From: Promethearchaeota archaeon
GTDB lineage: Archaea; Asgardarchaeota; Lokiarchaeia; Sigyniarchaeales; SOKP01
Assembly: GCA_048938445.1 (NCBI GenBank)
Contig: JBHLME010000018.1
Location: 1-46,767 of the forward strand
Length of the DNA stretch: 46,767 bases
Reading direction: 5' to 3'
Shown here: positions 7,001 through 46,548 of the stretch, in pieces
Layout of the letters: each line of letters opens with the position of its first letter
Position numbering within the stretch: the first letter of the stretch is position 1
Translations under genes and position numbers: made by a program
Notes under the pieces: model-generated
Database searches by the model: none
Told to the model about the DNA's origin: nothing
Seen by the model: the letters and a program-made list of their open reading frames with translations, nothing else

Positions 7001-8293
7001 TTAAATTCTAATGGTTTACTTCCGATGTATACATATGGAGGTATTCTCTTAGTTAACGTCACCAATGGAGTAATAACAAATAACAACTGTTCATCAACTC
7101 AAAATGGTATAAGGTTGCTTACTTCGAGCGATAATCTCATTTTCCATAATAATCTTGAAAAAAATTTGTATGATGGAATCCATATTATTAGTTATAGTTA
7201 TAATAATATTATTTTAAACAATATAATCAGTTATAATAATTTTACTCTTTCAAATGGAATACGACTACAATCTAGTAGTAACAATACTATTTCAGGAAAT
7301 ATGATTATTCAAAACACTCAAGGATTAATTCTAACTGGTAATAGTCATTTTAATAATATTTCAGAAAATTTGTTTTATAATAACTTAATCTGTATTTCTA
7401 TAGATGAGGGATGCAATGGTAATATTATTGAACATAATTATAATTATTTAATACCTGCGGGAATTTTCCAAAAAGAAATCACTGGCAATAACAATTTTAA
7501 TATTTCTTTATCGATAAGTGTAAAAAATTTTACAAAAATTTTCTTTTTAGATTATGCACATAGTCCTATAAACAAGGATCTTATAGATAGCGTAATTTTC
7601 ATTGACTTATCGCTTAATGATACTAGTAATTTAGATAATTCTACTGATCATCCTATTAATATCACGATAAAATATGATCCTACAATATATGAAAATCTAA
7701 CTGTATGGGTATATAATGCATTTGCTAATAATGGAATTGGAAAATGGGAACTTGTATCCTCTTATATAAAGAAAAATGGAATGATTATAATATCGGGAAG
7801 TAATTCTTCCATAATTGCGTTAGTGGATTCAGAACTGAAAGAGATTTTTATTCCCCCTGAAAACTTCATAGGAATAATATTTACAATTATTATTATATCG
7901 ATTTTAATTGGATGTTTTATTTCAATTATAGCAAATTCAATCTATAACTACAATAAAAGAATTTTTGCTAAAAAAGCTATTATAAGAAAGCAAAAAGATA
8001 AAGTACATGAGAAAATAATCCCTAATCAATCTTCAAAAGAGATTATAGAGCAAATAATTGATGAAAGTTCATTATTTCAAATTTTTGATAATAATGAACC
8101 ATTTAAAGAAATTAATTATGATTTGATAGAAAATATTGATCTAATTCATGTTTCTAGAATTCTATTAACTAAATTGGATAAATGTGATTTAAAAGGAATC
8201 GATAAAATGATATTTATAAAAGAAATGTTGGCATTTCCCTCTAAAATAAGAAATGATATTTTGGATGATATTTTAAAAAAATTGGATAATTAA
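4079..8293 (+). CDS. Large membrane-anchored right-handed parallel beta-helix (NosD/CASH-type) surface protein with cytoplasmic tail
   Basis: N-terminal signal-like hydrophobic segment, many GIxL..S.NN.I..N repeats, a TM helix near 7865-7940 and a ~115-aa C-terminal tail. Confidence 0.85.
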   Translation: MDKKIKKLRILRVCLIISMIFINIFNYNQNNFKDSIEKDSIINLKYSEFYLIDSFTIDDSGNGEYTWVEISEQPWCNGNGSTENPYIIENIVINGNYEANCLKIKNSNVYFIVRNCSFFNSGTVYSLYFAGIRLINVTNGQFINNTCNDNFIGIYLSNCENNIFLKNVIKDNEYRGIWISDFSHFNYIKENVVVNNKNGIYISSSDSNYISGNFINNNTGYGIEVIWSNQINISRNTANNNTGGIKLTGGRDHEVIGNIAYYNIDSGISISNIINSNITANILNYNYKRGLHLMSINNENNISGNIANYNKENGFRIAWCENIEIKNNTANFNGQVGINLYSDNNITVSNNVLEGNYENGISFYFGNNNSISRNFFKESGIGFSGIYKDTSIHNIDVSNLLNGNPIYYYINEVYLNQNNFSNAGNPGQIILVNCNHSIIENFNVSIISLYYCESNIISGINTIYNSVNGIYLHKCFNSTVKENILNENSIGIFIDQCENISISGNILNKNIYGIRLVEGINNALSSNIMLDCGVKIEGSIQRISSYKIDITNTIDGNPIYYYVNEFNLNKDSFLNAGQVILVNCTNSEVSDLNITSGTSGISLFYCKNISITNNSVEFNNKYGLCLIYSFNLNISENRINNNSFDGIYLYKSNNATIHNNNICYNYRKGIFLFQSNYTTIYNNIFNGYKEKAIYEEDCIGNIVENNYISGYWHIQSLFIDGTSSGIGAHNWTWAISQSWCRGAGSFNDPYIIENISVDHNGNGSCIELINSNVFFKIQNVIIYDSGIDYYDAGIKLNNTHNGELINNKFTNIIRTGIILFNCNNITILDHIIIDKFEGICLYKSNNNTILGNTANNNDENGLRLYQSNYNLIKNNIFIDNRRGILEENSSDNTFVNNTCIDRSEAFFISPIIIDDLGNGDYTWVEASKEGWCSGFGTKETPYIIKNVIIDGNGPNNCIEIHNSDIYFIIENCTFLNSNGLLPMYTYGGILLVNVTNGVITNNNCSSTQNGIRLLTSSDNLIFHNNLEKNLYDGIHIISYSYNNIILNNIISYNNFTLSNGIRLQSSSNNTISGNMIIQNTQGLILTGNSHFNNISENLFYNNLICISIDEGCNGNIIEHNYNYLIPAGIFQKEITGNNNFNISLSISVKNFTKIFFLDYAHSPINKDLIDSVIFIDLSLNDTSNLDNSTDHPINITIKYDPTIYENLTVWVYNAFANNGIGKWELVSSYIKKNGMIIISGSNSSIIALVDSELKEIFIPPENFIGIIFTIIIISILIGCFISIIANSIYNYNKRIFAKKAIIRKQKDKVHEKIIPNQSSKEIIEQIIDESSLFQIFDNNEPFKEINYDLIENIDLIHVSRILLTKLDKCDLKGIDKMIFIKEMLAFPSKIRNDILDDILKKLDN

Positions 8294-8328
8294 TGTGTTT
8301 CAAATAAAAAATCCTTAAGCTAATTTAA

Positions 8329-9003
8329 ATGATGCAAGACCAAATTAAAAAAGACGAACAAATAGTATTCAATCTTATAGAAGAATATTTGAATAATAAT
8401 AGATATTTAAATAGCAAAGATTTAATATCTTTTATCAATTCAAGGTTCGCAAGAAGCTCTATTAATATTAGTAATAATGGAATAAAAGAAATTCTTAATA
8501 CTCTTTTCAAAAAAAAAGTAATTGTAGAACGGTCAAAATTTACAAAAAAAGATGTTTTATTTAATTATAATAGAAAATTAATATATGAACTAATAAAAAA
8601 AAAGCCTGGAATTCATTTTAATAAAATTGGAAAAATATTGAATATGAATAATTCTATGGTTGCATGGCATCTAAATATCTTATTAAATTTCCAATATATT
8701 AAAAAAAAAAAAATTGAAAATTTTGAAGCTTACTTTGATTTAAATATCAGTGATGATAATATAAAAATAATCCATCTTATTTCTAGAGAGAAATACAAAA
8801 GAATTATTGATTTTTTAAAAAAAAATAAAAAAGGTTGCACAAAATATCGACTTTCTAAAGAATTAGGGATGCATCCTAATACAATAAGTAAGTATATTAG
8901 TAATCTTGAAGAATTTGGATTATTAAGAAGAAAGAAATTAAATAATAAAACTTTAATTTTATTAAATGAAGATGTTTATGAAAATTTAGTATATAATAAA
9001 TAA
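8329..9003 (+). CDS. Tandem winged helix-turn-helix transcriptional regulator
   Basis: Two wHTH units: KKPGIHFNKI..MVAWHLNIL and KYRLSKELGMHPNTISKYISNLEEFGLL. Confidence 0.85.
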   Translation: MMQDQIKKDEQIVFNLIEEYLNNNRYLNSKDLISFINSRFARSSINISNNGIKEILNTLFKKKVIVERSKFTKKDVLFNYNRKLIYELIKKKPGIHFNKIGKILNMNNSMVAWHLNILLNFQYIKKKKIENFEAYFDLNISDDNIKIIHLISREKYKRIIDFLKKNKKGCTKYRLSKELGMHPNTISKYISNLEEFGLLRRKKLNNKTLILLNEDVYENLVYNK

Positions 9004-9069
9004 TTATAAAGATTTGATTTGAAATTATATAAGTTTAAAAAAAGATTTATCTAGAAGTTTAAAATTTAT

Positions 9070-10734
9070 TTATTTAATTATAGCATATATGTCCTTATCC
9101 CTGTCGTGCTCTCTTAGTATTTTTCTACCTTCTTTATTAGATAAGGAAAGATTAATCTCACTATTTCGACTTAAAGATCCTGTGAAAATTGGTTCTTCAT
9201 TAGCATAAACTACTATATTCTGACTCGCATAAACGGGAGAAGCCGTCAAAATTATTTTTTTCGATTTCACAGAAACATCCAATTCAATTCTTTCTTTTCT
9301 GGACCTCTTACGTTTTGATTTAGGAGTTTGAATTATATCGTATTGCTCATGCTTAATCTTCGTTCCTATGGTATGGATTGGATTTATGACAATATCTTGT
9401 CCAAATGAGTAAATTTCATAACCAAGTTGTCCTGTTAAAAAATTTCTAACCTCAACTACAGGTCGAGCGAGGTCCTTGTCTCTAAAACCAGAGGGTACTT
9501 TGACGGTCATTTTAACAACTAAAATAGTTGAGATATCCCCTCCTTCAATAAATATGATCGTATCGATGATAGAAGGCAACATTCCAAGTTCTATCCTACC
9601 AATAAATCTCTGGATCGCATCTATGGCAGAGGAACTATGCACTACTCCCACCATTCCGACTCCTGAAAGCCTAAAATCAGAGTAAATCTCAAAATCTTTA
9701 GTAGTACGAACTTCGTCAAATATGGTAAAATCTGGTCTGACAAGAAGTAATATATCTGCAGAGTTTTCGAGATTTCCCTCTAATTTTGTATATTGAGTGA
9801 TTTCTGGATTTACTTGTAGGTCTCTCACGCTTTCAAGAGTTTTTACAACTTTATCTTGATTTAAATAATAATTTGCTAAAGCTGCTGAGAATGTTGATTT
9901 TCCCGCCCCTGGTGAACCTGCTACAAGAATACCTTCAGCAGTTTTTAATCGTTCCTTAAGTCTTATGTCTATTGAATAATCTTCTAATGATAAACTAACA
10001 AGAGGACGAACGGCAGTAATTTCAACATCATTAGAAAAGGGGGGTCTGGTGATTACAATTCGGAACTCCCGTAATTGAGCTACTACTGCTCCCTCTTTTT
10101 CTATTTCTATAAATGAATGTTCATCTTCACGTACATTTTCAATGATTTCAAGGGCAATATCTTCAATAATATCATTGTCGATAATAGTTTCTGAAATTTT
10201 TTCTAAATGCCAATTACCCGGTGCTCCTTTTTTTGCATGAGGGGGTAAATTGCGTTTAAGATGGACACTCATTGTGGATTCATCAAAAAAATTAAATAGC
10301 TTGAGAGAAAGTGGTTCTAAAGTTTTTGACTTTTTTTTTTCCCATGAAAATATTACTTCTAAACCTTCAAAGATACCAACATCTCCTTGAATTCGATCAG
10401 AAGTAATTAATATTGCATCATTTTCAAGAGCAGATTTTCTGATCAATGCATCAAGCTCTCCACCGGGACTCATTTTTATTTCTTCTCTTGTAGGACGATT
10501 TCCAACAATTTGAAGTTTAATTTTTCCTTTTCTATTCCACTCACGCAATTGCTTTAGGACATTTAATCCATAAAATCCAATTTCTTTTTGTATGTTTGTC
10601 CTATATTCAACTTCGGCAATGACAATATTTGGTATTAATATTTCTGGAAACTCACCTAATTCTCCATCTTCAATTAATACAAGTATTTGTCCATTAAAAA
10701 TTACAGAAGTATCACAAACAAACTTTTCTGACAT
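9070..10734 (-). CDS. PIN-domain P-loop ATPase (PINA family, Holliday junction branch migration-associated)
   Basis: N-terminal PIN (CDTSV...DALI..A...LITSD), Walker A GSPGAGKST, LLLVRPDFTIFDEVR and GVVH motifs. Confidence 0.9.
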   Translation of the reverse strand: MSEKFVCDTSVIFNGQILVLIEDGELGEFPEILIPNIVIAEVEYRTNIQKEIGFYGLNVLKQLREWNRKGKIKLQIVGNRPTREEIKMSPGGELDALIRKSALENDAILITSDRIQGDVGIFEGLEVIFSWEKKKSKTLEPLSLKLFNFFDESTMSVHLKRNLPPHAKKGAPGNWHLEKISETIIDNDIIEDIALEIIENVREDEHSFIEIEKEGAVVAQLREFRIVITRPPFSNDVEITAVRPLVSLSLEDYSIDIRLKERLKTAEGILVAGSPGAGKSTFSAALANYYLNQDKVVKTLESVRDLQVNPEITQYTKLEGNLENSADILLLVRPDFTIFDEVRTTKDFEIYSDFRLSGVGMVGVVHSSSAIDAIQRFIGRIELGMLPSIIDTIIFIEGGDISTILVVKMTVKVPSGFRDKDLARPVVEVRNFLTGQLGYEIYSFGQDIVINPIHTIGTKIKHEQYDIIQTPKSKRKRSRKERIELDVSVKSKKIILTASPVYASQNIVVYANEEPIFTGSLSRNSEINLSLSNKEGRKILREHDRDKDIYAIIK

Positions 10735-10755
10735 GATTTATATTATTGCTTTATA

Positions 10756-11274
10756 TTATTCATTAATATCTGGTTTGAATCCATTTTCTAAAATAATTTT
10801 GGTTGCTAGTTTTGAAACATTTCCCACAACTGTAGAACAATGTTCTAACATTCCAGATGTAAAAGCTTCTCTCCGTTCTTCAGGATTCCAGAGATCATAT
10901 GATTTACCTACTAACTTCATTTGTACATCATGACATCTACAAGAGCCATATTGGTTTAAATACTCATTATGTAATTGTTTTACAAGTTTATATGATTTCA
11001 TTGGTTTATCCATTTTTTTAAAATCCTTATATTCTCTCCCAAATAAATATCCAATTACCATGGAAGAACCAACTAAAGCTCCACAGGAACCATCACCGGT
11101 CAGACCTAAACCATCTGCAATACCACTTGCTGCTTTAAAGACATCATCATTCCAGATACCGAGAGCTTTAAAAATAGCCGCGATTGATGTCTGCCCACAT
11201 CCTGTACATTCTTTTTCATATTTTTTTCCAAGTTCAAAAGCATTATCTAGAATCTTTTTATTTATCTCACTCAT
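10756..11274 (-). CDS. C_GCAxxG_C_C family putative redox protein
   Basis: GCGQ, CGALVG, GSCRC and C-terminal HC motifs. Confidence 0.85.
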   Translation of the reverse strand: MSEINKKILDNAFELGKKYEKECTGCGQTSIAAIFKALGIWNDDVFKAASGIADGLGLTGDGSCGALVGSSMVIGYLFGREYKDFKKMDKPMKSYKLVKQLHNEYLNQYGSCRCHDVQMKLVGKSYDLWNPEERREAFTSGMLEHCSTVVGNVSKLATKIILENGFKPDINE

Positions 11275-11881
11275 TTTCTAAGACCGTATTATCAATTTTT
11301 TTCATAATTTGAAATTTTTTAACACTATAAAATATTGGTTTGCTTAACCTATCGACCGTTGCAACTATTAAATCCTTACGAGAGCTCATAGCAACCCTTG
11401 AGATTCGATCTAAATCACGTAATTCGATAGGATCTCCCTCAAAAACTGGATAAATCAGAAATTTAGCAGAATCGCTTTCAAAATTTGCACCACGCTTATA
11501 AACTCGAAAATCAATCCCATCTCCATAACCTGTTCTAACTAAATAACCTCGTTTTCTCAAATCCATGTAGATGATATATTTATGCCATAATCTGTCATCA
11601 AATTGAGTAAAGTATTCAAGTGCACTTTCAAAATTAAATTGTTTTTTATTCTCATCGTTATCTTCCCATATTAGAAGTCGATGTCGTTCAATTAATAGTA
11701 GAACTTCTATTGAGTTTAAAAATAAAAGCTCAGTATCCGTGTCATCCTTTTCAATCGTTCCAATATAAGAGTTTTGGTAAAATTCTTGTATTCCATTAGG
11801 ATCTAAAATTATGACTTTATCTTTTTTTATTATGCCTTTTATCTGTAGTTTTTCTGACTTATCTAATGATTTTTCTTCCAT
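11267..11881 (-). CDS. endA: tRNA-intron endonuclease subunit (probably the non-catalytic/structural type)
   Basis: YMDLRKRGYLVRTG..GIDFRVY and RVAMSSRKDLIVATVD. The catalytic His position appears to be Ser. Confidence 0.85.
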   Translation of the reverse strand: MEEKSLDKSEKLQIKGIIKKDKVIILDPNGIQEFYQNSYIGTIEKDDTDTELLFLNSIEVLLLIERHRLLIWEDNDENKKQFNFESALEYFTQFDDRLWHKYIIYMDLRKRGYLVRTGYGDGIDFRVYKRGANFESDSAKFLIYPVFEGDPIELRDLDRISRVAMSSRKDLIVATVDRLSKPIFYSVKKFQIMKKIDNTVLENE

Positions 11882-14525: not shown

Positions 14526-14894
14526 CTAATCTGTGAAGATTTTTTTTATTTTTTTACTAATATCTTCCATTTCTAACGTTACAAGCCCAATATTAGGTTG
14601 GGGTTTTGTTATAGCTACTAATATAACGCGTCCAGCTCCAATAAGAAACATATTTCCTTTATCTAATTCCAAATTTAAACTACTGAACTCACCGTTGAAT
14701 AAAGCTTCTGCACTTCTCTTTGAAGTGCCTAATAATGCAGCTGACATTGCAGCTATCATTCTTTCATTTGTTTCCTTAGGTAAAGCAGAAGCTACAATCA
14801 AACCATTAGTTCTAATCACTGCAGTCCCGATTATATCAGATACCCTACTTTCAAGCTCTTCTAGTTGTTGATTAATTTTATCTATAACACTCAT
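14526..14894 (-). CDS. Roadblock/LC7 (MglB-like) protein
   Basis: GTAVIRTNGLIVASALP, IAAMSAALLG and PNIGLV motifs. Confidence 0.92.
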   Translation of the reverse strand: MSVIDKINQQLEELESRVSDIIGTAVIRTNGLIVASALPKETNERMIAAMSAALLGTSKRSAEALFNGEFSSLNLELDKGNMFLIGAGRVILVAITKPQPNIGLVTLEMEDISKKIKKIFTD

Positions 14895-29769: not shown

Positions 29770-30038
29770 TTCAATAATTTCATTGGGTTATAAGTTATTT
29801 TATACATTATTTAATCTTCATTTTCATTCCAATGGATTATAATAAATACCAAGAATTAATATTAAATTATAGTAAATGTAAAAAATCATGATTAATACGT
29901 AAACCTATCGAACTCTGTATTTTTTCATACCCCATCAATTGTTCGAGACTGATCGAAGTGGAGTTAATTTTTAAATACATAAATATAGACAATGGAGGAT
30001 TTTGATAATCTTTAATATCAAATAAATAGGTGAATTCA

Positions 30039-30572
30039 ATGAAGCACGTCTTCAAAATACTTATATTAGGGGATGGTGGTGTTGGAAAAACAACCTTATT
30101 ACATAGATTTGTAGAGGGAGAATTCATTGATACGGCAACGATGACAATTGGAGTTCAAGTTCGTGCTAAAGAGCTTAAAATATCATCTGATACGTGTCAA
30201 ATACTATTGTGGGATGTTACTGGTCAAGAGAGATTTCGTTTCATGATAGAGGAATATTTCAAGGGAGCCCTTGGAGCATTGATTCTTTTTGATATCACAA
30301 ACATGAAGAGTTTCGTAAATATTGAAAAATGGATGACATTATTAGGTAAATTTTATGATGATTTACCTGTGATACTCGTTGCAGCTAAATATGATCTGGA
30401 AGAATTTTCCATGGTTGGAGATCTTTACGCAAGAAAAATACAAGAAAAATTAGGTTTTGATGATTATATAAAGACATCTGCAAAATCCGGAATGAATGTA
30501 GAAAAACCATTTAAGAAAATAGCTAAGCTAATCTTAAATTCAGAAGCAAATCTTTTTAAAAGTGCTACATGA
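30039..30572 (+). CDS. Rab-like small GTPase
   Basis: G1 GDGGVGKT, G2 TIG, G3 WDVTGQERF, G4 AKYD, G5 TSAK. An AGGTGA SD-like sequence precedes ATG 30039. Confidence 0.93.
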   Translation: MKHVFKILILGDGGVGKTTLLHRFVEGEFIDTATMTIGVQVRAKELKISSDTCQILLWDVTGQERFRFMIEEYFKGALGALILFDITNMKSFVNIEKWMTLLGKFYDDLPVILVAAKYDLEEFSMVGDLYARKIQEKLGFDDYIKTSAKSGMNVEKPFKKIAKLILNSEANLFKSAT

Positions 30573-33070: not shown

Positions 33071-34015
33071 TTAAGAGTATTGGAGCATTTTTTCAATTGG
33101 AACAAGAGCTTTTTCAGCAATTTCACGAGGTACTTTCACTTCAAAAGACTTGTCATCTAAATTTTCCAGCACGTATTTCATTAGTTCAATTGTATTTTTT
33201 TTCATGTTATAGCATACTAACTTATCGCTTAATAAAGAAAATCTTTTTTCGGGAAAATCTTCGATCATACGTTCCATAAGACCAACTTCTGTACCTATAA
33301 CAAATTCATGTTGATCCTTAAGGTTGTCCTTAACAAAATTATACATTTGAGCAGTTGATCCTACAAAATCTACCGATTCTCTTACAACTCTCACGCATTC
33401 AGGATGTACCAAGATATTTGCATTAGGATAGTTTTCTCGTGCTTTATTAATATCCTCTATATTTAATCGTGAATGAACAATACAATGTCCATTTGCGGGC
33501 ATTTTAATCGTTTTAATTCCTGATTTTTGTTCCGTAAAGTCGGCTAAGTTTGCATCCGGTCCAAATAATACTTCGCTTGTATTGTTTTCTTTGGAGATTT
33601 TTTTAACAATTTTCACAGCATTTGATGACGTACAACAAATATCGGATTCAGACTTTACTGCTGCCGTGCTATTTACGTATACAACAACAGGTACACCTGG
33701 ATATTGCTTTTTGAACTCTTTTACTTTTTCTGGTGTTAGAAATGCTGCCATTGGACACAATGATTCAGGATTTGGAATCAAAACTTTTTTATCTTGATTT
33801 AAAATAGATGCGGTTTCAGCCATGAATTTAACACCTGCAAATAAAATATATTCAGTATTAGCTTCATTTTTAGCCTTCTGAGATAAACCAAGAGAATCTC
33901 CTAAAAAGTCTGCTACTTGCTGAATTTCCATTGGTTGATAATAATGTGCAAGTATCGTTACATCATTTTTATTCTTTAACTCTATAATTTCTTCCTGTAA
34001 TTTTGTTAGGGTCAA
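33071..34015 (-). CDS. nadA: Quinolinate synthase
   Basis: ILAHYYQ, GDSL, FMAETA, CPMA, YVNS, CTSSNA, CIVH, HPEC and GTE motifs. Confidence 0.96.
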   Translation of the reverse strand: MTLTKLQEEIIELKNKNDVTILAHYYQPMEIQQVADFLGDSLGLSQKAKNEANTEYILFAGVKFMAETASILNQDKKVLIPNPESLCPMAAFLTPEKVKEFKKQYPGVPVVVYVNSTAAVKSESDICCTSSNAVKIVKKISKENNTSEVLFGPDANLADFTEQKSGIKTIKMPANGHCIVHSRLNIEDINKARENYPNANILVHPECVRVVRESVDFVGSTAQMYNFVKDNLKDQHEFVIGTEVGLMERMIEDFPEKRFSLLSDKLVCYNMKKNTIELMKYVLENLDDKSFEVKVPREIAEKALVPIEKMLQYS

Positions 34016-34204: not shown

Positions 34205-35725
34205 TCAATGAATTAATTTTGTGAGATGATTCTCAATAGGTTTCTTATTTTGAAATGCTGGATAATATTCTAATTCAGTTCGATATATTCTACTAATTTT
34301 TTTTAATTTTTTTATTATTGAGCGAAATCCAATACTCCGGTATATATTATTAAACATCTTCCTGATTCTATATCTTTTTGTTCTTAAATTTTCTTTATGA
34401 AAATTTTGTATATCTCGTAAAAATTGCTTTAAAATCGAACTCCATGAATAAAATTTATCATATGCCCAAAGAATCCCTTCAAATAGTTGACTAGCAGTCA
34501 TATTTTTTGGTTCTACTATTACATGGTTTCCATCATATAGATCAATATCATCGTTAATTAAACGATTTTTATCAAGATTCTTAAAAAATGAAGTTCCCGG
34601 TAAAGGTGTAATAATAAGAAATTGAACACTCTCAATCGCATTGTCTTTACAAAATTTAACAGTCTTTTCGAAAACTGAATTATCATCATTATCTAGACCA
34701 AGAATAAACATGGCATGGATGGGAATACCATTATTATGGAATACTTTTATTGCATTTTTATATACTTCTAAAGTAGTTTTTTTTTCTATTTCATTAAGAG
34801 AATTTTGATTTACTGATTCAAAACCAATAAATACACGTCTACAACCTGCTAAAGCCATCTCTTTTATAAAACTCTCATCAGTGGCAATATCTGCTCTAAC
34901 TTGTGCAAGCCATATAAATTTATGATCAAGTTCTTTTATTTTTGAAAATAGCATCAAAGCTCGTTTCTTATCAACGCAAAAATTATCATCCAAAAAGAAA
35001 ACATATTTTCGCAAATATTGATTTATTGCTTTGATAGTTTGTTCAATTGAGAATAAACGGTATTTTCTTCCATACATTTCTGTAACACAACAGAATGTGC
35101 AACCAAATGGGCAACCCAATGAAGTCAATATAGGTGCAATTTTAATTCTTTTATTATTAACAACTACGCTTAAATCTGGTATCAACAATTTTGTTAAATC
35201 ATCTATACGTTTTGTCTTAACTATTTTTTCTTTAAATTTTCCTTCTATAAGGTCTAGTATTATCTCCTCTCCTTCTCCAATACATAAATAATCACAATAT
35301 GGGAGCCCTTCATTAGGATTCATAGAGGGGTGAATACCTCCAATTATCACTTTTCCGTCTGGTCGATATTTTTTATACTGGTCAGCTAAAAAATATCCAC
35401 GTTTAGCTGTTTGTGTTAAGAGGGAAAATATTAAAATATCTACCGATTTTAAAATTTTTTCGGGAATATCTTTTTTAGCTAAGTTTTCATGATACATGAT
35501 TGCGTTATAACCATGTTGTCTTAAAATAGTAGTCATGCGAAGTGGACCTAATAACGGATATTTCATAACATTTGAAAAGATATTTGCTTTTGCACCCCGA
35601 GGTTCTAAGAATAAAATTTTTTTTGATTTTAAATACTTACTTGGATATTGACTCTTATTGACCTTGGGTTTTGGAGAAATACCTTTTAACCAATCTAAAA
35701 TCAATTTTGATTTTAAAACATTCAT
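34205..35725 (-). CDS. B12-binding domain radical SAM protein
   Basis: GGIHPS, GEGE, GCPFGCTFC, DDNF and GFES motifs. Confidence 0.92.
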   Translation of the reverse strand: MNVLKSKLILDWLKGISPKPKVNKSQYPSKYLKSKKILFLEPRGAKANIFSNVMKYPLLGPLRMTTILRQHGYNAIMYHENLAKKDIPEKILKSVDILIFSLLTQTAKRGYFLADQYKKYRPDGKVIIGGIHPSMNPNEGLPYCDYLCIGEGEEIILDLIEGKFKEKIVKTKRIDDLTKLLIPDLSVVVNNKRIKIAPILTSLGCPFGCTFCCVTEMYGRKYRLFSIEQTIKAINQYLRKYVFFLDDNFCVDKKRALMLFSKIKELDHKFIWLAQVRADIATDESFIKEMALAGCRRVFIGFESVNQNSLNEIEKKTTLEVYKNAIKVFHNNGIPIHAMFILGLDNDDNSVFEKTVKFCKDNAIESVQFLIITPLPGTSFFKNLDKNRLINDDIDLYDGNHVIVEPKNMTASQLFEGILWAYDKFYSWSSILKQFLRDIQNFHKENLRTKRYRIRKMFNNIYRSIGFRSIIKKLKKISRIYRTELEYYPAFQNKKPIENHLTKLIH

Positions 35726-35749
35726 TTCTCATTCTCTTTAAGTTTGTAT

Positions 35750-35763
35750 TAAGTGTACACTTA
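35750..35763. promoter_or_regulatory. 14-bp perfect palindrome upstream of the radical SAM gene
   Basis: TAAGTGTACACTTA; the GTGTACAC core recurs at 35834-35841. Confidence 0.45.
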
Positions 35764-35893
35764 TTTTTTATCTATAAAAACTTTTAGTTGGAAACCTAGT
35801 TGATTTACGGGAGTATTTTATAATTAAATTATGGTGTACACAATCTTTCCACGTTAAAAATTAGATCTATAGATAAATTTAAGAAATTAAAGG

Positions 35894-37027
35894 TTATTCT
35901 GGTATTTCGGGAATTAATAATACAAAATTACTCCCTTGTGAATAATCTCCTTCAATACGATCCTCAATCCAAATTTTTCCTTTATATGTTTGAATAATTT
36001 TCTTTACGAGGGATAATCCAAAACCTAGACCTTTACTGTCTTTATTCTTATTAAATGTCTCAAAAACGATTTCTTTCCTATTATCTTGAATACCAATACC
36101 ATTATCTTTAAATTCTATTTTTATAAAATTATTATCTTGGTCCCTTGAAATTTTTATAAATATAGTTAAAACTTTTTTTTCACAATATTGTACGGCGTTA
36201 ATTAATACATTATCAAATATATCTGCTAATAATTCATTCGCTTTAACATAAATTATTTCCTTTGGAATGTCCAATTTTACATAAATCTCTCTCTCTTGAT
36301 ACTTTTCATTTAAATGATCCAAACTATTGTGTAATACTTTATTTATATTAATTTTCTTTAATGTTATCTCAGAATCTTCTATTTGCGATAACTTTCCAGC
36401 ATTTTGAACCAATTTTATTCCTCTTTTAACATTTTTAACTATAATTTGTATCATTTCTTTCTTATCATTAGAATCGGGAGACATTTGACATATTTCTGCT
36501 GAAGATTGAATTATTTGAAGAATATTATTAATATCATGAATTATGATGTCCTTAAATAAGTTTGCTCTATTAAATGCATCTTTATATTTTTGTTCAGATT
36601 TTTTTAATCTTTTTTCTGCTCGTTTTAACTGCGTAACATCACGAGCTAGTCCATTAAAACCAATAATTTCTTTTGATTTTGAATATCTTAAATATACAGA
36701 TGTTTCTATCATAACTGTTTTATTAAATCTGTTTTTAAAAACAACTAGGACCGTTGCTTTATCAGTTTTAGATTTATATACCTTATTGAATTCTTGAAAT
36801 ATCGATTTTTTATTTTCTTCATCAGTAAAATCACCATAATTCAGATGTAACAATTCTTCCCTTGAGTATTGAATGATATTACAAAAACCATCATTTACAT
36901 ATAAAAAATTACCATTTAAATCAACTTCAAAATACCCCTCTTTAATATTTTCGAGGATATTGCGATATCTTTCTAATTCTTGTTCTAATTCCTCATAGCG
37001 TTCTAATAAATCTTCTTTAGAATCCAT
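35894..37027 (-). CDS. PAS-domain sensor histidine kinase
   Basis: PAS (EVDLNGNFLYVN, GLARDVT), H-box HDINN, N-box NA, DNGIG and GLGFGL. Confidence 0.92.
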   Translation of the reverse strand: MDSKEDLLERYEELEQELERYRNILENIKEGYFEVDLNGNFLYVNDGFCNIIQYSREELLHLNYGDFTDEENKKSIFQEFNKVYKSKTDKATVLVVFKNRFNKTVMIETSVYLRYSKSKEIIGFNGLARDVTQLKRAEKRLKKSEQKYKDAFNRANLFKDIIIHDINNILQIIQSSAEICQMSPDSNDKKEMIQIIVKNVKRGIKLVQNAGKLSQIEDSEITLKKININKVLHNSLDHLNEKYQEREIYVKLDIPKEIIYVKANELLADIFDNVLINAVQYCEKKVLTIFIKISRDQDNNFIKIEFKDNGIGIQDNRKEIVFETFNKNKDSKGLGFGLSLVKKIIQTYKGKIWIEDRIEGDYSQGSNFVLLIPEIPE

Positions 37028-37171
37028 ACTGCAGTTTTACTTTTTTATATTTGTTTTTGATAAATATCTTTAATTTCTATACATTTTGCTCTTTAATTTC
37101 ACACTACTTATCTATATATAAAAAAAATTAAGACTTAATTTTTAAAAAGTATGTTTATAATTTAAAGAGTA

Positions 37172-37915
37172 TTAATTTTGAAGTTTAGGGAGTAATAATA
37201 TGAAATTACTACCTTGTCTATGATCACCTTTAATGCGATCTTCGACCCATATGTTCCCCTTGAAGATTTCTACAATTTGTTTTACAAGTGATAGACCTAA
37301 GCCCATACCTTTTCCACCCTTTCCATGAGTATTTTTAGTAAAAATATTTTCTTTCTTTGAATCAGGAACTCCAATACCATTATCAATAAATTCAATTCTT
37401 ACTAATTTTCCACGTTTCTTATCAAATTGTTCAGTAATTATAATAAAAATTTCTATAATTGGGTTATTATTATAGTTTATAGCATTAATTATTATATTTT
37501 CAAAAATATCTTTTAATAAATCATTTGCTTTGACGATAATATCCCTATTTAATGATTCTACTTTCATGGATATATTACTAATTTTATTGCTTTTTTTTAT
37601 GTAGTTGATAACTTCACTTAAATTATCATATACTTTAACAGGTTTTATTTCTAATAATTTATTATCTAAAAAGGATAATTTATCTAAATTTGAGATAATT
37701 TGATATCCTTTATTTACTTGTTCTCTTATGATTTCTAGCATCTCTCTCAAATTGGATCGATTTTCAGGATCATCCAGATATAGAGAGCCTAAATCTGCAG
37801 ACATTAGGATTTTTGAAAAAATAGACCTCATATTATGTGAATACATTTGTTTAAAAATTCTTACTGTATTTGTCTGGGATGAGACCATAAATTCTTTTTT
37901 TAAATCTTGAATCAT
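37172..37915 (-). CDS. Sensor-less histidine kinase-like protein (HATPase_c, divergent H-box)
   Basis: SHNMRS H-box, ENIIINA, DNGIG and GMGLGL; paralogous to the adjacent kinase. Confidence 0.85.
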   Translation of the reverse strand: MIQDLKKEFMVSSQTNTVRIFKQMYSHNMRSIFSKILMSADLGSLYLDDPENRSNLREMLEIIREQVNKGYQIISNLDKLSFLDNKLLEIKPVKVYDNLSEVINYIKKSNKISNISMKVESLNRDIIVKANDLLKDIFENIIINAINYNNNPIIEIFIIITEQFDKKRGKLVRIEFIDNGIGVPDSKKENIFTKNTHGKGGKGMGLGLSLVKQIVEIFKGNIWVEDRIKGDHRQGSNFILLLPKLQN

Positions 37916-38149
37916 ATCATAACACTGTTAGCACAAATTATATCTTTGTGTACAAAAAACACTTTTATATTTATATTAAATATTAGTTTTTGTATATATA
38001 AATATTTTGTATGTAATAACAAAAAATATAAATATTATAGTTTTGTGGTAATTTTTCAAATATTTTTTTTCCATAAAATTAGATTTTATATATACATCAT
38101 TTATATCAAAACTTCTTCCTCTAATAAAATAATAAACATAACTAAAAAA

Positions 38150-39376
38150 TTAAATTTTATATTTTTTAACGATTTCTAAAAATGTATCAGCGAAATATTT
38201 TACTTGCTCCCATGTGAGACCATATGTGTTAAATTTCATTTCTTTCGAAATGCCTGGTGCCATCCCTATGATACCTCTTTCTTTAAAATCATCTCTTAGA
38301 AAAAATCCTTTTCTTGGATGGTTTTTAGAAATTTCAGCAAATAATTCTGTTTTAATTGAAGTTAAAGGGTGAATTTTTGGTAATTTTCCTAAAATTTCTA
38401 TACCTTCTATTTTTTTTATCTTGTCTATTATATAATTAACTTTCTTAGCCTCTTCTTCCACTATTTCTGGTTGGGTTCTTTTAACTATAGTAGGAAAACT
38501 TGCCATTAAGGTTATTAATGGAGCGCCATAGACGGGAGGGCATCCCATAACAGAGCATATTTTACTTGGAAAGGATTTAGAGGTTAAATCTCCAGATATT
38601 TTAGATAATTTCATTACTTCATCAGCATATTTTTCTTTAAATCCCAGTAATCCTATGGGTCCTGAAGCTGCCATCGATTTATGACCACTACAAGAAATGA
38701 AATCAACATTTAGGTTATTACAATCAATAGGAAGAATCCCTCCAGAATAAGCAGCATTTAAGAGAAAAGGTATGTCATATTTTTGACAGATATCTCCAAT
38801 TGGTTTTGGATCATTATAATTTCCATATTTATAGTCAACATGCGTTAACAGAGCTAATAGTGGTAATTTACCCTCTTCTTTTTGGACTTTTTTTATTATT
38901 TTTTCATAATCTTCTGGTTCAATTTTATATTCAGGGAAACCCGAATTAGGTACTTCTCTCACGGTAAGATTATTCACTTCAATTGCTAAATATGTGGTAT
39001 AATGAGCTGTACTATCAACCACAACAGTTTTTCTTTTAGGAAACTTCTTAACAAGAGCTCCCATTGCAATCCTTTTTGAATCTCTTGCAGCACCCGTGAG
39101 CATTACCTTGTCTATATTAAAGAATTTCGCTAAATCATTTAGAAATTCTACAACTGGAGGATTTTCAATCTTATCTATGCGCCCTTTTAGACAATTATCA
39201 CATAAACTATAACCATCTCCATATGAAATAAGTGCCTTAAACGCTTCTGGCGTTAAAATCCCCCCTCTTTGGATGGGATGAATGTTTATGAACTCTTCAT
39301 TAATATTTCTTGAAAAAGTAGAATATTTTTGTTCAATAACATTGATATATTCTGCATTTGTCAAATTATTAACCAC
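38150..39376 (-). CDS. pscS: O-phosphoseryl-tRNA:Cys-tRNA synthase (SepCysS)
   Basis: PIQRGG, GDGYSLCDNC, AHYTT, LNAAY, SGHKSMAASGPIG (PLP Lys) and MGC motifs. Confidence 0.93.
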   Translation of the reverse strand: MVNNLTNAEYINVIEQKYSTFSRNINEEFINIHPIQRGGILTPEAFKALISYGDGYSLCDNCLKGRIDKIENPPVVEFLNDLAKFFNIDKVMLTGAARDSKRIAMGALVKKFPKRKTVVVDSTAHYTTYLAIEVNNLTVREVPNSGFPEYKIEPEDYEKIIKKVQKEEGKLPLLALLTHVDYKYGNYNDPKPIGDICQKYDIPFLLNAAYSGGILPIDCNNLNVDFISCSGHKSMAASGPIGLLGFKEKYADEVMKLSKISGDLTSKSFPSKICSVMGCPPVYGAPLITLMASFPTIVKRTQPEIVEEEAKKVNYIIDKIKKIEGIEILGKLPKIHPLTSIKTELFAEISKNHPRKGFFLRDDFKERGIIGMAPGISKEMKFNTYGLTWEQVKYFADTFLEIVKKYKI

Positions 39377-39476: not shown

Positions 39477-41183
39477 ATGTCAGAACAACTAAATTTCATA
39501 TATTGTCAAGAATTTTGGTACATTAGCGCTTTTTTAAAAACTTCCACTAAAGATGATAAGAAAAAACATATAAGCGTTAATGGCAATGTAAAAAGTAAAG
39601 AAATTGAGACTTTAATAAGGAATAAGCTTAAATCATTAACAGATAGAGATATTTTTAAAAAAGAACTAAAGGATGTCATCATTGATTTAAGTCAAAATAT
39701 TTCTTTAACATGTAGATGGGTGCCATATATAAGAAATTTTCCTTATAGGGACGAGAATAATGATAGAAGTTATGATACCTTAGGATTCTTCCAGTTTGAT
39801 GTTGAATATTTTAAAGACACACCAAATAAAAAAGAAACAGTCAGTCCAATGTTAATACAGCAAATTCCATATATCGTATTGAATGAATTAAAAAACTTTT
39901 CTAAAAGGGATGAAAACCAAGGCATTTTATTTGATCTTGAAAGTCCTATTTATGTGTTTGTAACATCAAACAATACTAAACCAGCAAATATCAGCTGGAA
40001 TCCTGAAAACATTGAAAAATATAAAAAAGTCATTTCATATTGGACAGAAATTTACTCTGGCCAATGGGAGGATTATTCCGTCACTCTTTATGATCGGCGG
40101 ATAGAGAATAATTTATCAAATCGACTATCAGAACTCCATTTTATTCGGAGAAATTCTGGATTTATCTACATGGCAGAAGACAATTATAATCAATTTTTTG
40201 AGTCATACATGAAGAACTTCGTACTCGATCCAACTCCTAAGATTAGGGCAGTTTTATTCGCATTTAGGTCCATTAATGAATCTCTTGATCTTCTATTTCT
40301 GAAATCACATTCCGAGGCTTTCATGAATCTAGAGACAATTGAAGCTAAAATAAAAAATCTAAGGTTATTAAGGGGTTTAATACAAACACAATTGAGCATA
40401 ATATACAATGAATTGGATTATAATAGAAGGCAACACTATACTTCTGTTTTAACCCATTTATTAAATGAATTTGAACTTAAAAACATTGTAAATCGCGTGA
40501 ATGAAAAATTTACTATCATATATGATTCGATGGAAGAACTTTACTTAAAAAAAAGCCAAGAAAATCAACAAAGAACAGAAAGAGGCTTAAATTTATTAAA
40601 TTTATTATTTGGTGCGGGAGTTTTAGCTGATTTAGTGGGATTATTACTGGGAGTTCTCACATTTGGAGAGGGGGATCTAATAGCAATGTTACTGAATTTG
40701 ATAGTTTCAATAATTATAATTGGAATATTAATTGCAACGATTGTCTTTAACGTGCGTTTGAAGTTTCAATTGAAAAAGGAAAATATTGGAAAAACAGTAG
40801 ACGCCGTAATAGTAGATAATTCTGGTAATATTGTATTGATTCAGAGAAAATATCCTCCATTTAAAGATTATTATGCATTACCTGGAGGATTTGTTGAAAA
40901 GGGAGAAACAGCTGAACAAGCCTTAAAAAGAGAAGTTAAAGAGGAAACTAATTTAGATATTAAAATTGTTAATAAAATAGGTGTATTCGATGAAGAGGGT
41001 AGGGATCCAAGAGGAAAAATTCATTCAACAGCTTATAAATGCAAAATTATAAGTGATACCTCTGAAATGCATAGTGGAGATGATTCTAAAAAAGTGGAAC
41101 TCTTCCCAATAGAAAAAATAAAAAACTTAGAATTAGCTTTTGACCATAAAAAGATTTTAAAGGTTGCAAATATTATAAAATAA
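39477..41183 (+). CDS. Large soluble/helical domain + two TM helices + C-terminal Nudix hydrolase (ADP-ribose pyrophosphatase-like)
   Basis: Nudix box GGFVEKGETAEQALKREVKEETNL, RDPR, GDD and LAFDH motifs. Two hydrophobic helices near 40585-40750. Confidence 0.85.
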   Translation: MSEQLNFIYCQEFWYISAFLKTSTKDDKKKHISVNGNVKSKEIETLIRNKLKSLTDRDIFKKELKDVIIDLSQNISLTCRWVPYIRNFPYRDENNDRSYDTLGFFQFDVEYFKDTPNKKETVSPMLIQQIPYIVLNELKNFSKRDENQGILFDLESPIYVFVTSNNTKPANISWNPENIEKYKKVISYWTEIYSGQWEDYSVTLYDRRIENNLSNRLSELHFIRRNSGFIYMAEDNYNQFFESYMKNFVLDPTPKIRAVLFAFRSINESLDLLFLKSHSEAFMNLETIEAKIKNLRLLRGLIQTQLSIIYNELDYNRRQHYTSVLTHLLNEFELKNIVNRVNEKFTIIYDSMEELYLKKSQENQQRTERGLNLLNLLFGAGVLADLVGLLLGVLTFGEGDLIAMLLNLIVSIIIIGILIATIVFNVRLKFQLKKENIGKTVDAVIVDNSGNIVLIQRKYPPFKDYYALPGGFVEKGETAEQALKREVKEETNLDIKIVNKIGVFDEEGRDPRGKIHSTAYKCKIISDTSEMHSGDDSKKVELFPIEKIKNLELAFDHKKILKVANIIK

Positions 41184-41204: not shown

Positions 41205-41846
41205 TTATAAAAGATGTTCTATAATTTTATTTATATTTATGCCTGATGCAATAAAGAAATAAGGTTTATTTATTTGTTTTTCATTTATTTTATCTTCTTT
41301 AATTATTTCGTTCATTTTAAATAATATTTCGTTATAAAACTTCTTAAATTTGCTATACTGGGATTTACTCAAAAAGATCATTGAACCAAATAATTCACCC
41401 TCTTCTTTCATTTGATTAAGTATAGTTAAAGAATCCTCCCTATTCTCCAATTTCTCATAAAATTTCAATTTCATATTTATAAAATTTCTAATATGAATAT
41501 CAAATAATTTTAAACTTGAAAGTATTGATTCAAAGTTTTCAGGATTAATTTTATCCACTTTCTCAATATCTCTGACTCCAGTAAAGATAGATTGATTTAA
41601 ACCTCTATCTGTTAAAGAATAGATCTTTGCAGGAATATTTCCTCTTACTTTTTCTTCTCGAACAACTTCGACAATTCCAATTTCAATTAACTTTTGTAAA
41701 TGAGGATGTACTGTTGATTTGCTTTTATATAGCTTCTTACATAAATTTGTAAAACTTAGTTCTGAATAAATGGATAAAAGCCCCCAAATTCGAAATCTTA
41801 TTTCACTTTTTAGGAAGTTATAATGTGTTAATTGTTTTTTATTCAT
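41205..41846 (-). CDS. ArsR-type wHTH regulator
   Basis: IRFRIWGLL, KSKSTVHPHLQKLIEIGIV and KIYSLT motifs. Confidence 0.85.
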   Translation of the reverse strand: MNKKQLTHYNFLKSEIRFRIWGLLSIYSELSFTNLCKKLYKSKSTVHPHLQKLIEIGIVEVVREEKVRGNIPAKIYSLTDRGLNQSIFTGVRDIEKVDKINPENFESILSSLKLFDIHIRNFINMKLKFYEKLENREDSLTILNQMKEEGELFGSMIFLSKSQYSKFKKFYNEILFKMNEIIKEDKINEKQINKPYFFIASGININKIIEHLL

Positions 41847-46176: not shown

Positions 46177-46548
46177 TTAGAGAATTGATTTTATTTTTTT
46201 AATAAATTCTTCTATTTCAATAAGTATAAGTCCGAAATTACAATCAATTGCGATTAATGAAGCTAAAAATAATTTGTCATCAATGCTTATGGTTAATATT
46301 TGATAATCACTCATTTCAACGGTGATATGTTGGATTTTCTTATTATTGATTGTTACCATAGCACTTTCCATGCCATTTAATAAAGCAGCAACCATCGCTC
46401 CGAACTTACGATTATCAATATCAAGGGGTAACCGAGAAGCTAATAACAAACCATTTCGATTTACTATAGCTGTACCAACAATACCACTATCAAATTTTTC
46501 GAGTTCTCTTAATTTTTTTGCTAATTGATCATGAATTTCTTGTTTCAT
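46177..46548 (-). CDS. Roadblock/LC7 protein
   Basis: GTAIVNRNGLLLASRLP, GAMVAALL and NFGLI motifs. Confidence 0.9.
   Translation of the reverse strand: MKQEIHDQLAKKLRELEKFDSGIVGTAIVNRNGLLLASRLPLDIDNRKFGAMVAALLNGMESAMVTINNKKIQHITVEMSDYQILTISIDDKLFLASLIAIDCNFGLILIEIEEFIKKIKSIL

Follow-up and report, generated by a model that had tools for sequence, protein, structure and literature searches.

In the TRPM2 chanzyme, ADP-ribose is described as opening the channel and slow hydrolysis by the NUDT9-H domain as closing it (PMC11479946). A CorA-family effector has been reported that is activated by SAM-AMP and requires a SAM-AMP-degrading enzyme (PMC12255297). The NrtR repressors, whose Nudix domains are reported to resemble the ADP-ribose pyrophosphatase domain of NadM, bind ADP-ribose as an effector and have often lost the Nudix signature, and hence the activity (PMC2330246). 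In the literature searched, we found no paper describing a CorA-Nudix fusion and no archaeal channel under the control of a NAD-derived nucleotide, and eukaryotic TRPM2 was the only channel-enzyme with a Nudix domain; in PMC13143021, a hit for CorA and Nudix, CorA matches only as part of the word "corals". Here we describe a gene on a 46,767-nucleotide stretch of Promethearchaeota archaeon DNA (contig JBHLME010000018.1; the whole stretch is called the window below) that encodes a two-transmembrane (2-TM) module joined to a Nudix domain in a single chain of 568 amino acids (aa). The open reading frame (ORF) runs on the plus strand from the ATG at 39477 to the stop at 41183, as given by the ORF list and the translation, and the gene is present as a single copy in its own genome.

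The reading frame, its layout, the intact Nudix domain and the fusion itself were all confirmed. The gene is a member of an undescribed membrane-protein family that has the architecture of the CorA superfamily without the CorA sequence signature. The initial annotation had seen in the protein a nucleotide-gated pore that degrades its own ligand, an interpretation that our analysis partly supports.

Our favoured reading is tentative, and we regard it as possible rather than probable: the protein would provide an oligomeric, CorA-fold cation pathway whose activity ADP-ribose, or a ligand like it, modulates by way of the Nudix domain, and in which hydrolysis serves as an intrinsic off-switch. The module would homo-oligomerise, into a pentamer by analogy, such that the Asn/Gly/Asp-striped TM1 lines the cation pathway and TM2 faces the lipid. 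The Nudix domains, positioned at the membrane face, would bind ADP-ribose or a close nucleoside diphosphate (NDP)-sugar derived from NAD+ consumption, and their occupancy would act on TM2 and the stalk. Hydrolysis to AMP and ribose-5-phosphate would then end the signal, so that the protein would be a self-limiting channel-enzyme, working in a mode that we liken to that of the invertebrate and choanoflagellate TRPM2 chanzyme without placing it in that family. We infer the oligomer, the pore, the ion, the identity of the ligand and the coupling.

The likeness to TRPM2 lies in the design and is an analogy, with no family relationship implied. As in the choanoflagellate and cnidarian TRPM2 proteins, a channel-type module and a C-terminal, cytoplasmic, ADP-ribose-type Nudix domain are found in one chain, and as reported for TRPM2, some lineages have an active Nudix domain and others a degenerate one (PMC11479946, PMC5671594, PMC4917252), a difference that for the family described here is judged from the residues of the Nudix box. 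The scaffolds, however, are unrelated, TRPM2 being a 6-TM TRP tetramer and our protein having a 2-TM, CorA-like module. The fused Nudix domain is of the NadM/NrtR type, with no NUDT9 chain among the 60 PDB matches listed, and the protein lacks an MHR/SLOG domain, with no TRP or MHR match in Pfam. The CorA proteins of type III CRISPR systems, which act with NrN or SAM-AMP lyase, would share with the fusion a CorA-family effector under nucleotide control that depends on a nucleotide-destroying enzyme (PMC12255297). There, however, the enzyme is separate and encoded at a CRISPR locus, whereas here the Nudix domain is fused and no cas genes are nearby.

If ADP-ribose is indeed coupled to ion flow, this design would have arisen twice on unrelated scaffolds, and the gene would open a direct way into ADP-ribose signalling in the archaea most closely related to eukaryotes. 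A function would also be assigned to a family of 88 clusters (at 50% identity) that has no Pfam model and has members in myxobacteria, in Thecamonas and in the transcriptome of a marine protist. Should the protein prove to be no channel, the family is a well-defined new target that is single-copy, strongly conserved and well modelled (predicted local distance difference test, pLDDT, 89).

An ADP-ribose-related Nudix domain behind two membrane helices

The only Pfam match of the protein is NUDIX (PF00293), which covers aa 439-561 with an E-value of 8.2e-21 (74.9 bits against a cut-off of 21.1). The Nudix box is intact, as the initial annotation had it, and reads G471-x5-E477-x7-R485-E486-V-K-E489-E490-T-N492-L; its sole deviation from GX5EX7REUXEEXGU is Asn492 in place of the penultimate Gly, and this Asn is invariant in 44 homologues. 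The strict pattern GX5EX7REX2EE is found in 120 of 121 close homologues. Across a wider sample of 15 fused representatives at 50% identity, the box is strict in 10, REVREE is kept in P0124, and the box is degenerate in four. The catalytic glutamates have been lost in these four (P0123, P0129, P0136 and the eukaryotic P0137), with the domain and its LAFDH motif retained. Catalytic residues are also partly lost in the myxobacterial clade, where a Nannocystis protein (P0244) carries REVKDE and is without the first Gly and Glu of the box. Repeated catalytic loss together with retention of the domain argues that ligand binding, and not hydrolysis alone, has been kept by selection, as in NrtR and vertebrate TRPM2. 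In the four degenerate fused lineages, the Nudix domain presumably acts as a binder only.

That the domain is of ADP-ribose type, as had been proposed, is borne out in the sense that it is closest to the NadM-Nudix ADP-ribose pyrophosphatases and to NrtR, judging by NCBIfam, by sequence matches in the PDB and by Foldseek. Among NCBIfam models, the highest-ranking are bifunctional NadM-Nudix and NtrR, an ADP-ribose-responsive repressor; their scores are far below the whole-protein cut-offs because only a single domain is matched. PDB sequence matches include 2yyh (E 7e-25) and 3i9x, followed by 2fml (EF2700, NrtR), 3gz8 and 3gz5 (NrtR) and 2qjt and 2qjo (NadM), the last five with profile E-values of 4e-18 to 5e-13. 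With a full-length model, Foldseek returned 2fml, 2yyh, 2r5w, 2qjt, 2qjo and 3gz8, the last with bound ADP-ribose, at E-values of 7e-12 to 3e-9 for 2fml, 2r5w, 2qjt, 3gz8 and 2qjo. NadM is the type of a second ADP-ribose clade (PMC5389931).

These proteins (2qjo, 2qjt, 2r5w, 3gz8 and 2fml) are the best relatives of aa 438-563 and share with it RDPR(G) and LAFDH. As in NrtR, where the Nudix signature is reported to be intact in some members and perturbed in others (PMC2330246), the family includes both states, and, as with NrtR genes, some fusion loci adjoin nadA. The partner domain differs, as it is a membrane module rather than an NMN (nicotinamide mononucleotide) adenylyltransferase or a winged-helix DNA-binding domain. 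NrtR proteins are described as forming dimers by domain swapping, with an N-terminal Tyr from the other subunit among the predicted ligand contacts (PMC2330246), and the swapped dimer of the NadM/NrtR type has no obvious fit to a pentameric scaffold. If the N-terminal segment of the Nudix domain joins the ligand site as in NadM and NrtR, the linker from TM2 would couple occupancy mechanically to the membrane helices. The same genome also encodes a soluble, stand-alone paralogue of 139 aa that is 45% identical to the Nudix domain and has all the same motifs; the cell thus has another enzyme of this kind besides the fused copy.

The placement of the Nudix domain relative to the membrane follows from the helices ahead of it. 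Kyte-Doolittle windows put TM1 at about aa 372-395 and TM2 at about aa 403-427, separated by the short acidic loop TFGEGD. The flanks have a net charge of +2 ahead of TM1 and +4 behind TM2, so that the positive-inside rule would place both the 371-aa N-region and the Nudix domain on the cytoplasmic side of the membrane, in line with the topology first proposed. The strings on which that proposal drew are all in the translation: ELYLKKSQENQQRTERGLNLL at aa 354-374, RDPR at aa 509-512 and LAFDH at aa 553-557.

The membrane module and its resemblance to CorA

A first model of the full-length protein had a pLDDT of 75 and gave Foldseek matches that were all to Nudix domains. Because the Nudix domain masks the rest of the chain in such a search, aa 1-430 were modelled alone. 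With a diverse, 49-row alignment, this model reached a pLDDT of 89.2 and a pTM (predicted template-modelling score) of 0.82, and it comprises an alpha/beta domain of seven strand segments, four helices, a long helix at 334-393 and a further helix at 401-429. Foldseek ranked CorA of T. maritima (2bbj) first, with an E-value of 7.6e-3, a probability of 0.91, 333 aligned columns and a template-modelling score of 0.23. Further CorA entries appeared in the list at probabilities of 0.8-0.94, interspersed with Csm3 and carbamoylase noise. In the VIA rows, CorA, Mrs2 or CmaX was matched, with the whole chain spanned, in 24 of the best 25. We read CorA-superfamily chains as the only whole-chain structural matches, and on the model the architecture appears moderately CorA-like.

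The modelled layout is that of the CorA superfamily (CorA, Mrs2, ZntB and CmaX; PF01544; 2bbj, 8tmb, 4ev6, 7nh9 and 8ip4): an alpha/beta domain, a helical bundle, a stalk that continues into TM1 as one helix, a short acidic loop and TM2, with both termini in the cytoplasm. The inner helix is also better conserved than the outer one, as in that superfamily. Unlike its members, the fusion family is without profile similarity to CorA and without the GMN (Gly-Met-Asn) motif. The module is about 80 residues longer and has a signature of its own at aa 171-233, which is unmatched in a weak hhalign alignment, and a 130-aa enzyme follows TM2, whereas the two CorA sequences of the same genome end a few residues past this helix.

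Conservation along the chain gives further hints of what the module may do. In CorA, TM1 lines the pore and TM2 faces the lipid. In the fusion family, TM1 is better conserved than TM2 among close homologues (0.85 versus 0.64; alignment A1), in the diverse alignment A3 (0.45 versus 0.32) and among members without a Nudix domain (0.44 versus 0.34). Family-wide, N375 (0.90), L374 (0.84) and G379 (0.82) stand out in TM1; in close homologues, N372, G381 and D385 are invariant or nearly so, as nearly is E398 of the external loop. This pattern is as expected for a polar pathway lined by TM1 with a lipid-facing TM2, though it would not by itself be proof of one.

The most strongly conserved part of the family is cytoplasmic. 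The segment at aa 171-233 has a mean top-residue fraction of 0.66 in A3 and 0.64 in the Nudix-less alignment A4, followed by the NRRxHY motif (N316-R-R-x-H320-Y, within the helical bundle) and TM1. Its columns W174, W189, Y193-S-G-Q-W197, D199-Y200, N212-L-S-N-R216, S218-E219-L-H221 and N226-S227 are invariant or nearly so and are retained in Thecamonas, myxobacterial and Nudix-less members. The least conserved part of the module is aa 1-170 (0.38 in A3), for which the model has strands at 6-20, 75-92, 97-111, 150-152 and 159-168 with helices between them.

Several results weigh against a CorA-fold channel gated by ADP-ribose. Pfam gave no match of the protein to PF01544 at E<=10, none of 49 family members matched PF01544 or DUF155 at E<=1, and a genome-wide search with PF01544 matched other loci and not the fusion gene. 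When the family profile was aligned with that of 26 Asgard CorA proteins, hhalign returned a probability of 4.7% and an E-value of 0.0086. The sole local match, a weak one, places family positions 342-393 on CorA 270-318, collinear from stalk and TM1 to stalk and TM1, and in this low-confidence alignment the signature at aa 171-233 finds no CorA counterpart. A PDB sequence search with the Nudix-less profile A4 gave nothing usable (best E 0.55, syntaxin). GMN, the CorA signature, is absent from the translation, as the initial annotation had noted for the TM region, and when the 184 family members of 380 aa or more were scanned along their whole length for [YFW]G[MIV]N, 2 contained it. Structure comparison has its own weaknesses: Foldseek with the aa 1-430 model gave no match at E<=1e-3, its template-modelling scores were 0.23-0.28 at a root-mean-square deviation of about 18 Å, and a VIA search of 50 rows that was independent of Foldseek returned short helical hairpins alone and no CorA. 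Concerning the ligand, the best sequence match of the Nudix domain, 2yyh, is listed as being of undetermined function (PMC5389931), and one NrtR-family member is reported to control arabinose use, not NAD (PMC4666351). Beyond a single taxonomic family, we found no operon partner that is conserved. Finally, the existence of clades without a Nudix domain (see below) implies that the membrane module works without it, so that the Nudix domain is not its essential gate.

The CorA-like layout of N-domain, stalk and two TM helices put forward in the initial annotation is thus supported as a resemblance of fold, by the VIA rows and the first Foldseek rank, and is not borne out by sequence profiles. 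The resemblance does not establish homology to CorA; two defining features of CorA, the profile match and GMN, are both absent from the sequence. Weak Pfam matches to DUF2207_C, H-NS_N and holin among the 49 members (E<=1) lie in the stalk and the TM helices, and we attribute them to sequence composition. The ESM Atlas names PF27230 (MJ1566_N) for the protein, and for P0102 it gave no usable hit.

Table 1. Coordinates of the fusion gene and its parts in the window
Feature	Position	Strand	Basis or remark
Whole gene: N-module, 2 TM helices and Nudix domain	39477..41183	+	568 aa; ORF list and translation
N-terminal alpha/beta domain, aa 1-170	39477..39986	+	model m4d9203d7ab45, block pLDDT 71-98
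Family signature segment, aa 171-233	39987..40175	+	best-conserved part in all alignments
Helical bundle, aa 234-333	40176..40475	+	helices 234-250, 252-278, 285-315 and 319-331 in the model
Stalk helix, aa 334-371, running on into TM1	40476..40589	+	one helix, 334-393, in the model
TM1, aa 372-395, candidate pore-lining helix	40590..40661	+	hydropathy; polar stripe N372, L374, N375, G379, G381, D385
External loop FGEGDLI, aa 396-402	40662..40682	+	nearly invariant E398
TM2, aa 403-427, candidate outer, lipid-facing helix	40683..40757	+	hydropathy; lower conservation
Basic 10-residue linker from TM2 to Nudix, aa 428-437	40758..40787	+	translation
Nudix domain, NadM/NrtR type, aa 438-563	40788..41165	+	Pfam E 8.2e-21; RDPR 509-512, LAFDH 553-557
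Nudix box GFVEKGETAEQALKREVKEETNL, aa 471-493	40887..40955	+	G471-x5-E477-x7-REVKEE-T-N-L

Other explanations for the fusion

The same observations could describe a membrane-tethered Nudix hydrolase, in which the N-module is a sensor or scaffold rather than a pore and places or controls an ADP-ribose or NDP-X pyrophosphatase through whatever aa 171-233 binds. We consider this account, the main rival, almost as possible as our favoured reading. The intact Nudix box is the best-supported biochemical feature of the protein, the top conservation of the family lies in a cytoplasmic segment and not in the TM helices, and the resemblance to CorA is weak, all of which would suit a tethered enzyme. It would be harder to explain why the clades without a Nudix domain retain both TM helices and the conserved polar TM1, why the catalytic residues are gone in 4 of 15 fused lineages, and why a membrane-bound copy is kept when the soluble paralogue already provides this type of enzyme.

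The protein might instead be a divergent CorA-superfamily transporter of Mg2+, Mn2+ or Co2+, with the metal-dependent Nudix domain as a passenger or a sensor of metal load. CorA-superfamily structures are the only whole-chain matches, and the cytoplasmic domain of CorA carries metal sites, which D153, D199 and E219, all invariant or nearly so, could form here as well. P-type cation ATPases also flank the gene in two loci (L026, with two copies, and L034), although this adjacency is limited to 2 of the 40 loci compared. The protein lacks GMN, the selectivity signature, and the genome already contains two complete GMN-bearing CorA genes (with YGMNF and FGMNL) and a fragment of a third, from which it follows that the fusion protein is not the standard housekeeping Mg2+ channel. 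We think a divalent metal transporter unlikely.

We give still less weight to a role in NAD+ homeostasis that is tied to de novo synthesis and co-regulated with nadA, whether as a transporter of a pyridine or ADP-ribose-derived metabolite or as an NrtR-like feedback device at the membrane; we regard it as improbable. The idea draws on nadA, which is the immediate divergent neighbour in 7 of the 40 loci and within 6 kb in 9, and is also present in the window, and on the reported clustering of bacterial NrtR-type Nudix regulators with NAD genes such as nadA (PMC2330246). In the window, however, four ORFs separate nadA from the fusion gene. The nadA-linked loci are confined to one taxonomic family (f1), where they share a longer block of unrelated genes, and other genera, other classes and the myxobacteria have no NAD gene nearby. 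We also know of no CorA fold that transports an organic solute.

An anti-virus, abortive-infection effector comparable to the SAM-AMP-activated CRISPR CorA or to effectors of ADP-ribose signals, with the Nudix domain clearing a NAD-derived alarm, is very unlikely and was rejected as the leading explanation given the stable synteny amid housekeeping genes, the single copy, the high conservation (62-100% identity among the homologues listed) and the lack of cas or known defence genes in the window or among annotated neighbours, even though the CRISPR CorA effector is reported to require a signal-degrading enzyme (PMC12255297), the Nudix part matches the PADLOC candidate PDC-S07 (E 1.4e-17, a match confined to that domain) and one Nudix-less relative (L029) has a SIR2_2 protein 16 bp downstream.

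Distribution, origin and genomic neighbourhood

Of 8000 candidates scored in a word-indexed search, 556 proteins reached E<=1e-3. Each of the 120 homologues listed from these 556 is collinear and full-length (549-569 aa), is 62-100% identical and has PF00293, and the mean column identity over 44 homologues is 74%. Contigs from public runs of two other studies span the junction of TM2 and Nudix domain (X7 record 29, 40652-40865; X10 record 8, 40701-40999). No RNA run is listed as containing the stretch. Given the full-length homologues and the junction contigs, the fusion is not unique to this assembly, a concern raised in the initial annotation; the genome counts and the loci in other species document its wide distribution. 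Homologues are labelled Promethearchaeota, Lokiarchaeota, Hermodarchaeota, Thorarchaeota and Helarchaeota. The N-module (aa 1-430) is found in 130 of 400 genomes of the phylum, in 89 of 134 within its own taxonomic family, and in 30 of 90 genomes with a completeness of 90% or more and a contamination of 5% or less.

An exhaustive phmmer search with aa 1-430 against 1.84 billion cluster representatives found 88 proteins in all at E<=1e-3, 42 of them at E<=1e-30. Among 37 near-full-length representatives, 14 have a Pfam NUDIX match, P0136 has a degenerate Nudix-like tail by alignment, and the remainder (372-556 aa) have none. In a quick IQ-TREE analysis (50 rows, 433 columns, with three Nudix-bearing rows included uncut), members without the domain form two clades of 16 and 7 rows, with one long row, P0150, unplaced, and all fused members fall in one clade of 26 rows (SH-like approximate likelihood ratio test, SH-aLRT, 89) that includes one secondary loss (P0138). 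With a single fused clade, the Nudix fusion appears to have arisen once. Some genomes have two fused paralogues of about 559 and 575 aa, and since both subfamilies occur in several genomes, mixed assemblies are conceivable. In one such genome (G249:C47, locus L027), the two genes are tail to tail and 155 bp apart at 6001-7731 (plus strand) and 7887-9566 (minus strand), encoding proteins of about 576 and 559 aa that are about 50% identical. G230:C168 likewise has both.

The family extends beyond archaea. A scan of species-representative genomes gave 70 loci, six of which (L087-L092) are of myxobacterial type: Nannocystis sp., a Polyangia bacterium (on a 187-kb contig), two uncultured Myxococcales, an uncultured Nannocystis and one labelled Pseudomonadota. 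Their products are 59-100% identical to the Nannocystis query and 567-572 aa long, each with Pfam NUDIX, and they are encoded at loci whose GC content is 64-72% and whose neighbouring genes are typically bacterial (a sigma-54 activator, a GAF-adenylate cyclase and RPE65). Some members of the bacterial genus Nannocystis are in culture; the myxobacterial copies are from uncultured metagenome-assembled genomes (MAGs). On the tree, the myxobacterial clade is sister to P0124 (SH-aLRT 100) and nested among Asgard sequences, which suggests inter-domain transfer out of Asgard archaea to Myxococcota. Asgard-type copies on three contigs labelled Deferrimicrobium, Nanopelagicaceae and Woesearchaeota (L093, L126 and L151) are probably due to mis-binned or mislabelled MAG contigs.

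By cluster look-up, two apparently eukaryotic sequences belong to the family. P0137 is a complete ORF of 849 aa from an MMETSP transcript, with the N-module, two TM helices, a degenerate Nudix domain and a long, low-complexity tail. Its closest relatives are Asgard fused proteins (35-42% identity), with no other eukaryote found, and on the tree, within the fused clade, its sister is P0130 (SH-aLRT 98). A metagenome scan for relatives of P0137 gave 34 pattern matches, none of which was confirmed. P0137 and P0210 correspond to the MMETSP transcript (a marine protist transcriptome) and a JGI contig, and P0185 is named alongside them. The second protein, P0211, is the uncharacterised AMSG_05562 of the apusomonad Thecamonas trahens, which is Nudix-less, 469 aa long and in the cluster of P0188. 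Its gene is on a 453-kb contig and present in both RefSeq and EukProt, and hhalign matched it to the family profile with a probability of 100% and an E-value of 2.9e-43 over 245 columns that include the signature.

A broader evolutionary scenario, which we consider rather unlikely, would have an ADP-ribose-gated, ligand-hydrolysing cation channel of CorA fold originate in Asgard archaea as a second, independent invention of the TRPM2 design and pass to Myxococcota and to one or more eukaryotic lineages; relatives without a Nudix domain, that of Thecamonas among them, would then be channels of this new family gated through the conserved segment at aa 171-233.

The neighbourhood was compared across 40 loci of relatives, some of which end at contig ends. 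In the window, the fusion gene is flanked by a SepCysS-like gene (38150-39376, minus strand) and an ArsR-type helix-turn-helix (HTH) gene (41205-41846, minus strand). A sirtuin gene and nadA are in the window and neither is adjacent, as had been observed at the outset: the SIR2 gene (3097-3864; E 8.9e-31) is 35 kb from the fusion gene with no conserved link, and nadA (33071-34015, minus strand; E 7.8e-108) is 5.5 kb upstream. The four ORFs between nadA and the fusion gene (34205-39376, minus strand) encode a B12-binding radical-SAM (S-adenosylmethionine) protein of 506 aa, HATPase_c kinases of 377 aa (with PAS) and 247 aa, and a SepCysS/SepSecS-like pyridoxal phosphate enzyme of 408 aa. A SepCysS-like gene occupies the same position in L017, L066, L078 and L079.

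In the seven loci where nadA is the immediate divergent neighbour (L020, L021, L022, L027, L036, L080 and L081), the intergenic gap is 88 bp in L021 and 184 bp in L020; of the other two loci with nadA within 6 kb, L017 has the SepCysS-like gene in between and L024 has nadA about 5 kb away. Many of the nadA-linked loci encode a hexapeptide-repeat (transferase-type) protein, ThiF and Roadblock downstream, and all share one extended, conserved stretch with genes for hexapeptide transferase, ThiF, Roadblock and LSM. Neither a NAD gene nor a shared neighbour is seen in other genera of the family, in other classes, in members without a Nudix domain or in myxobacteria, and with the link limited to one family, inherited gene order is as likely an explanation as function. 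The neighbours of six Nudix-less members have no common theme (flavodoxin twice, rubrerythrin with desulfoferrodoxin once, SIR2_2 once). ORFs of 450-470 aa downstream of the myxobacterial genes were discounted as a partner, being unrelated to one another (E 0.21) and to the family. No Cas protein was found by Pfam among the 37 ORFs of the window that were scanned, nor among the annotated neighbours of relatives.

Some observations concern single loci. In L029, a Nudix-less member of 444 aa (5962-7296, plus strand) is followed by a gene for a 940-aa SIR2_2 protein of the defence-type, NADase-like kind (7312-10134, plus strand), a single case. In L024, a 1424-aa protein encoded beside the family gene (7495-11769, plus strand) has the repeat domains of the 1404-aa beta-helix/NosD-repeat protein of the window (4079-8293, plus strand), together with TIR_2.

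The window itself is Asgard-like, on the strength of a Ras-family GTPase gene, two Roadblock genes and Asgard-labelled homologues. These eukaryote-like genes, the small GTPase (30030-30572, plus strand) and the two Roadblock/LC7 genes (14526-14894 and 46177-46548, both on the minus strand), are scattered along it, and one Roadblock gene adjoins that of a MetOD1-domain protein. On the minus strand at 9070-10734 is a gene for a 554-aa protein with an N-terminal PIN domain and a T2SSE/PilT-like ATPase region. Between 16999 and 29769, two GH94 genes of cellobiose/chitobiose-phosphorylase type (825 and 828 aa) surround an HTH regulator and a five-gene ATP-binding cassette (ABC) transporter for oligopeptides or sugars, which looks like a cluster for the utilisation of beta-glucan or chitin oligomers.

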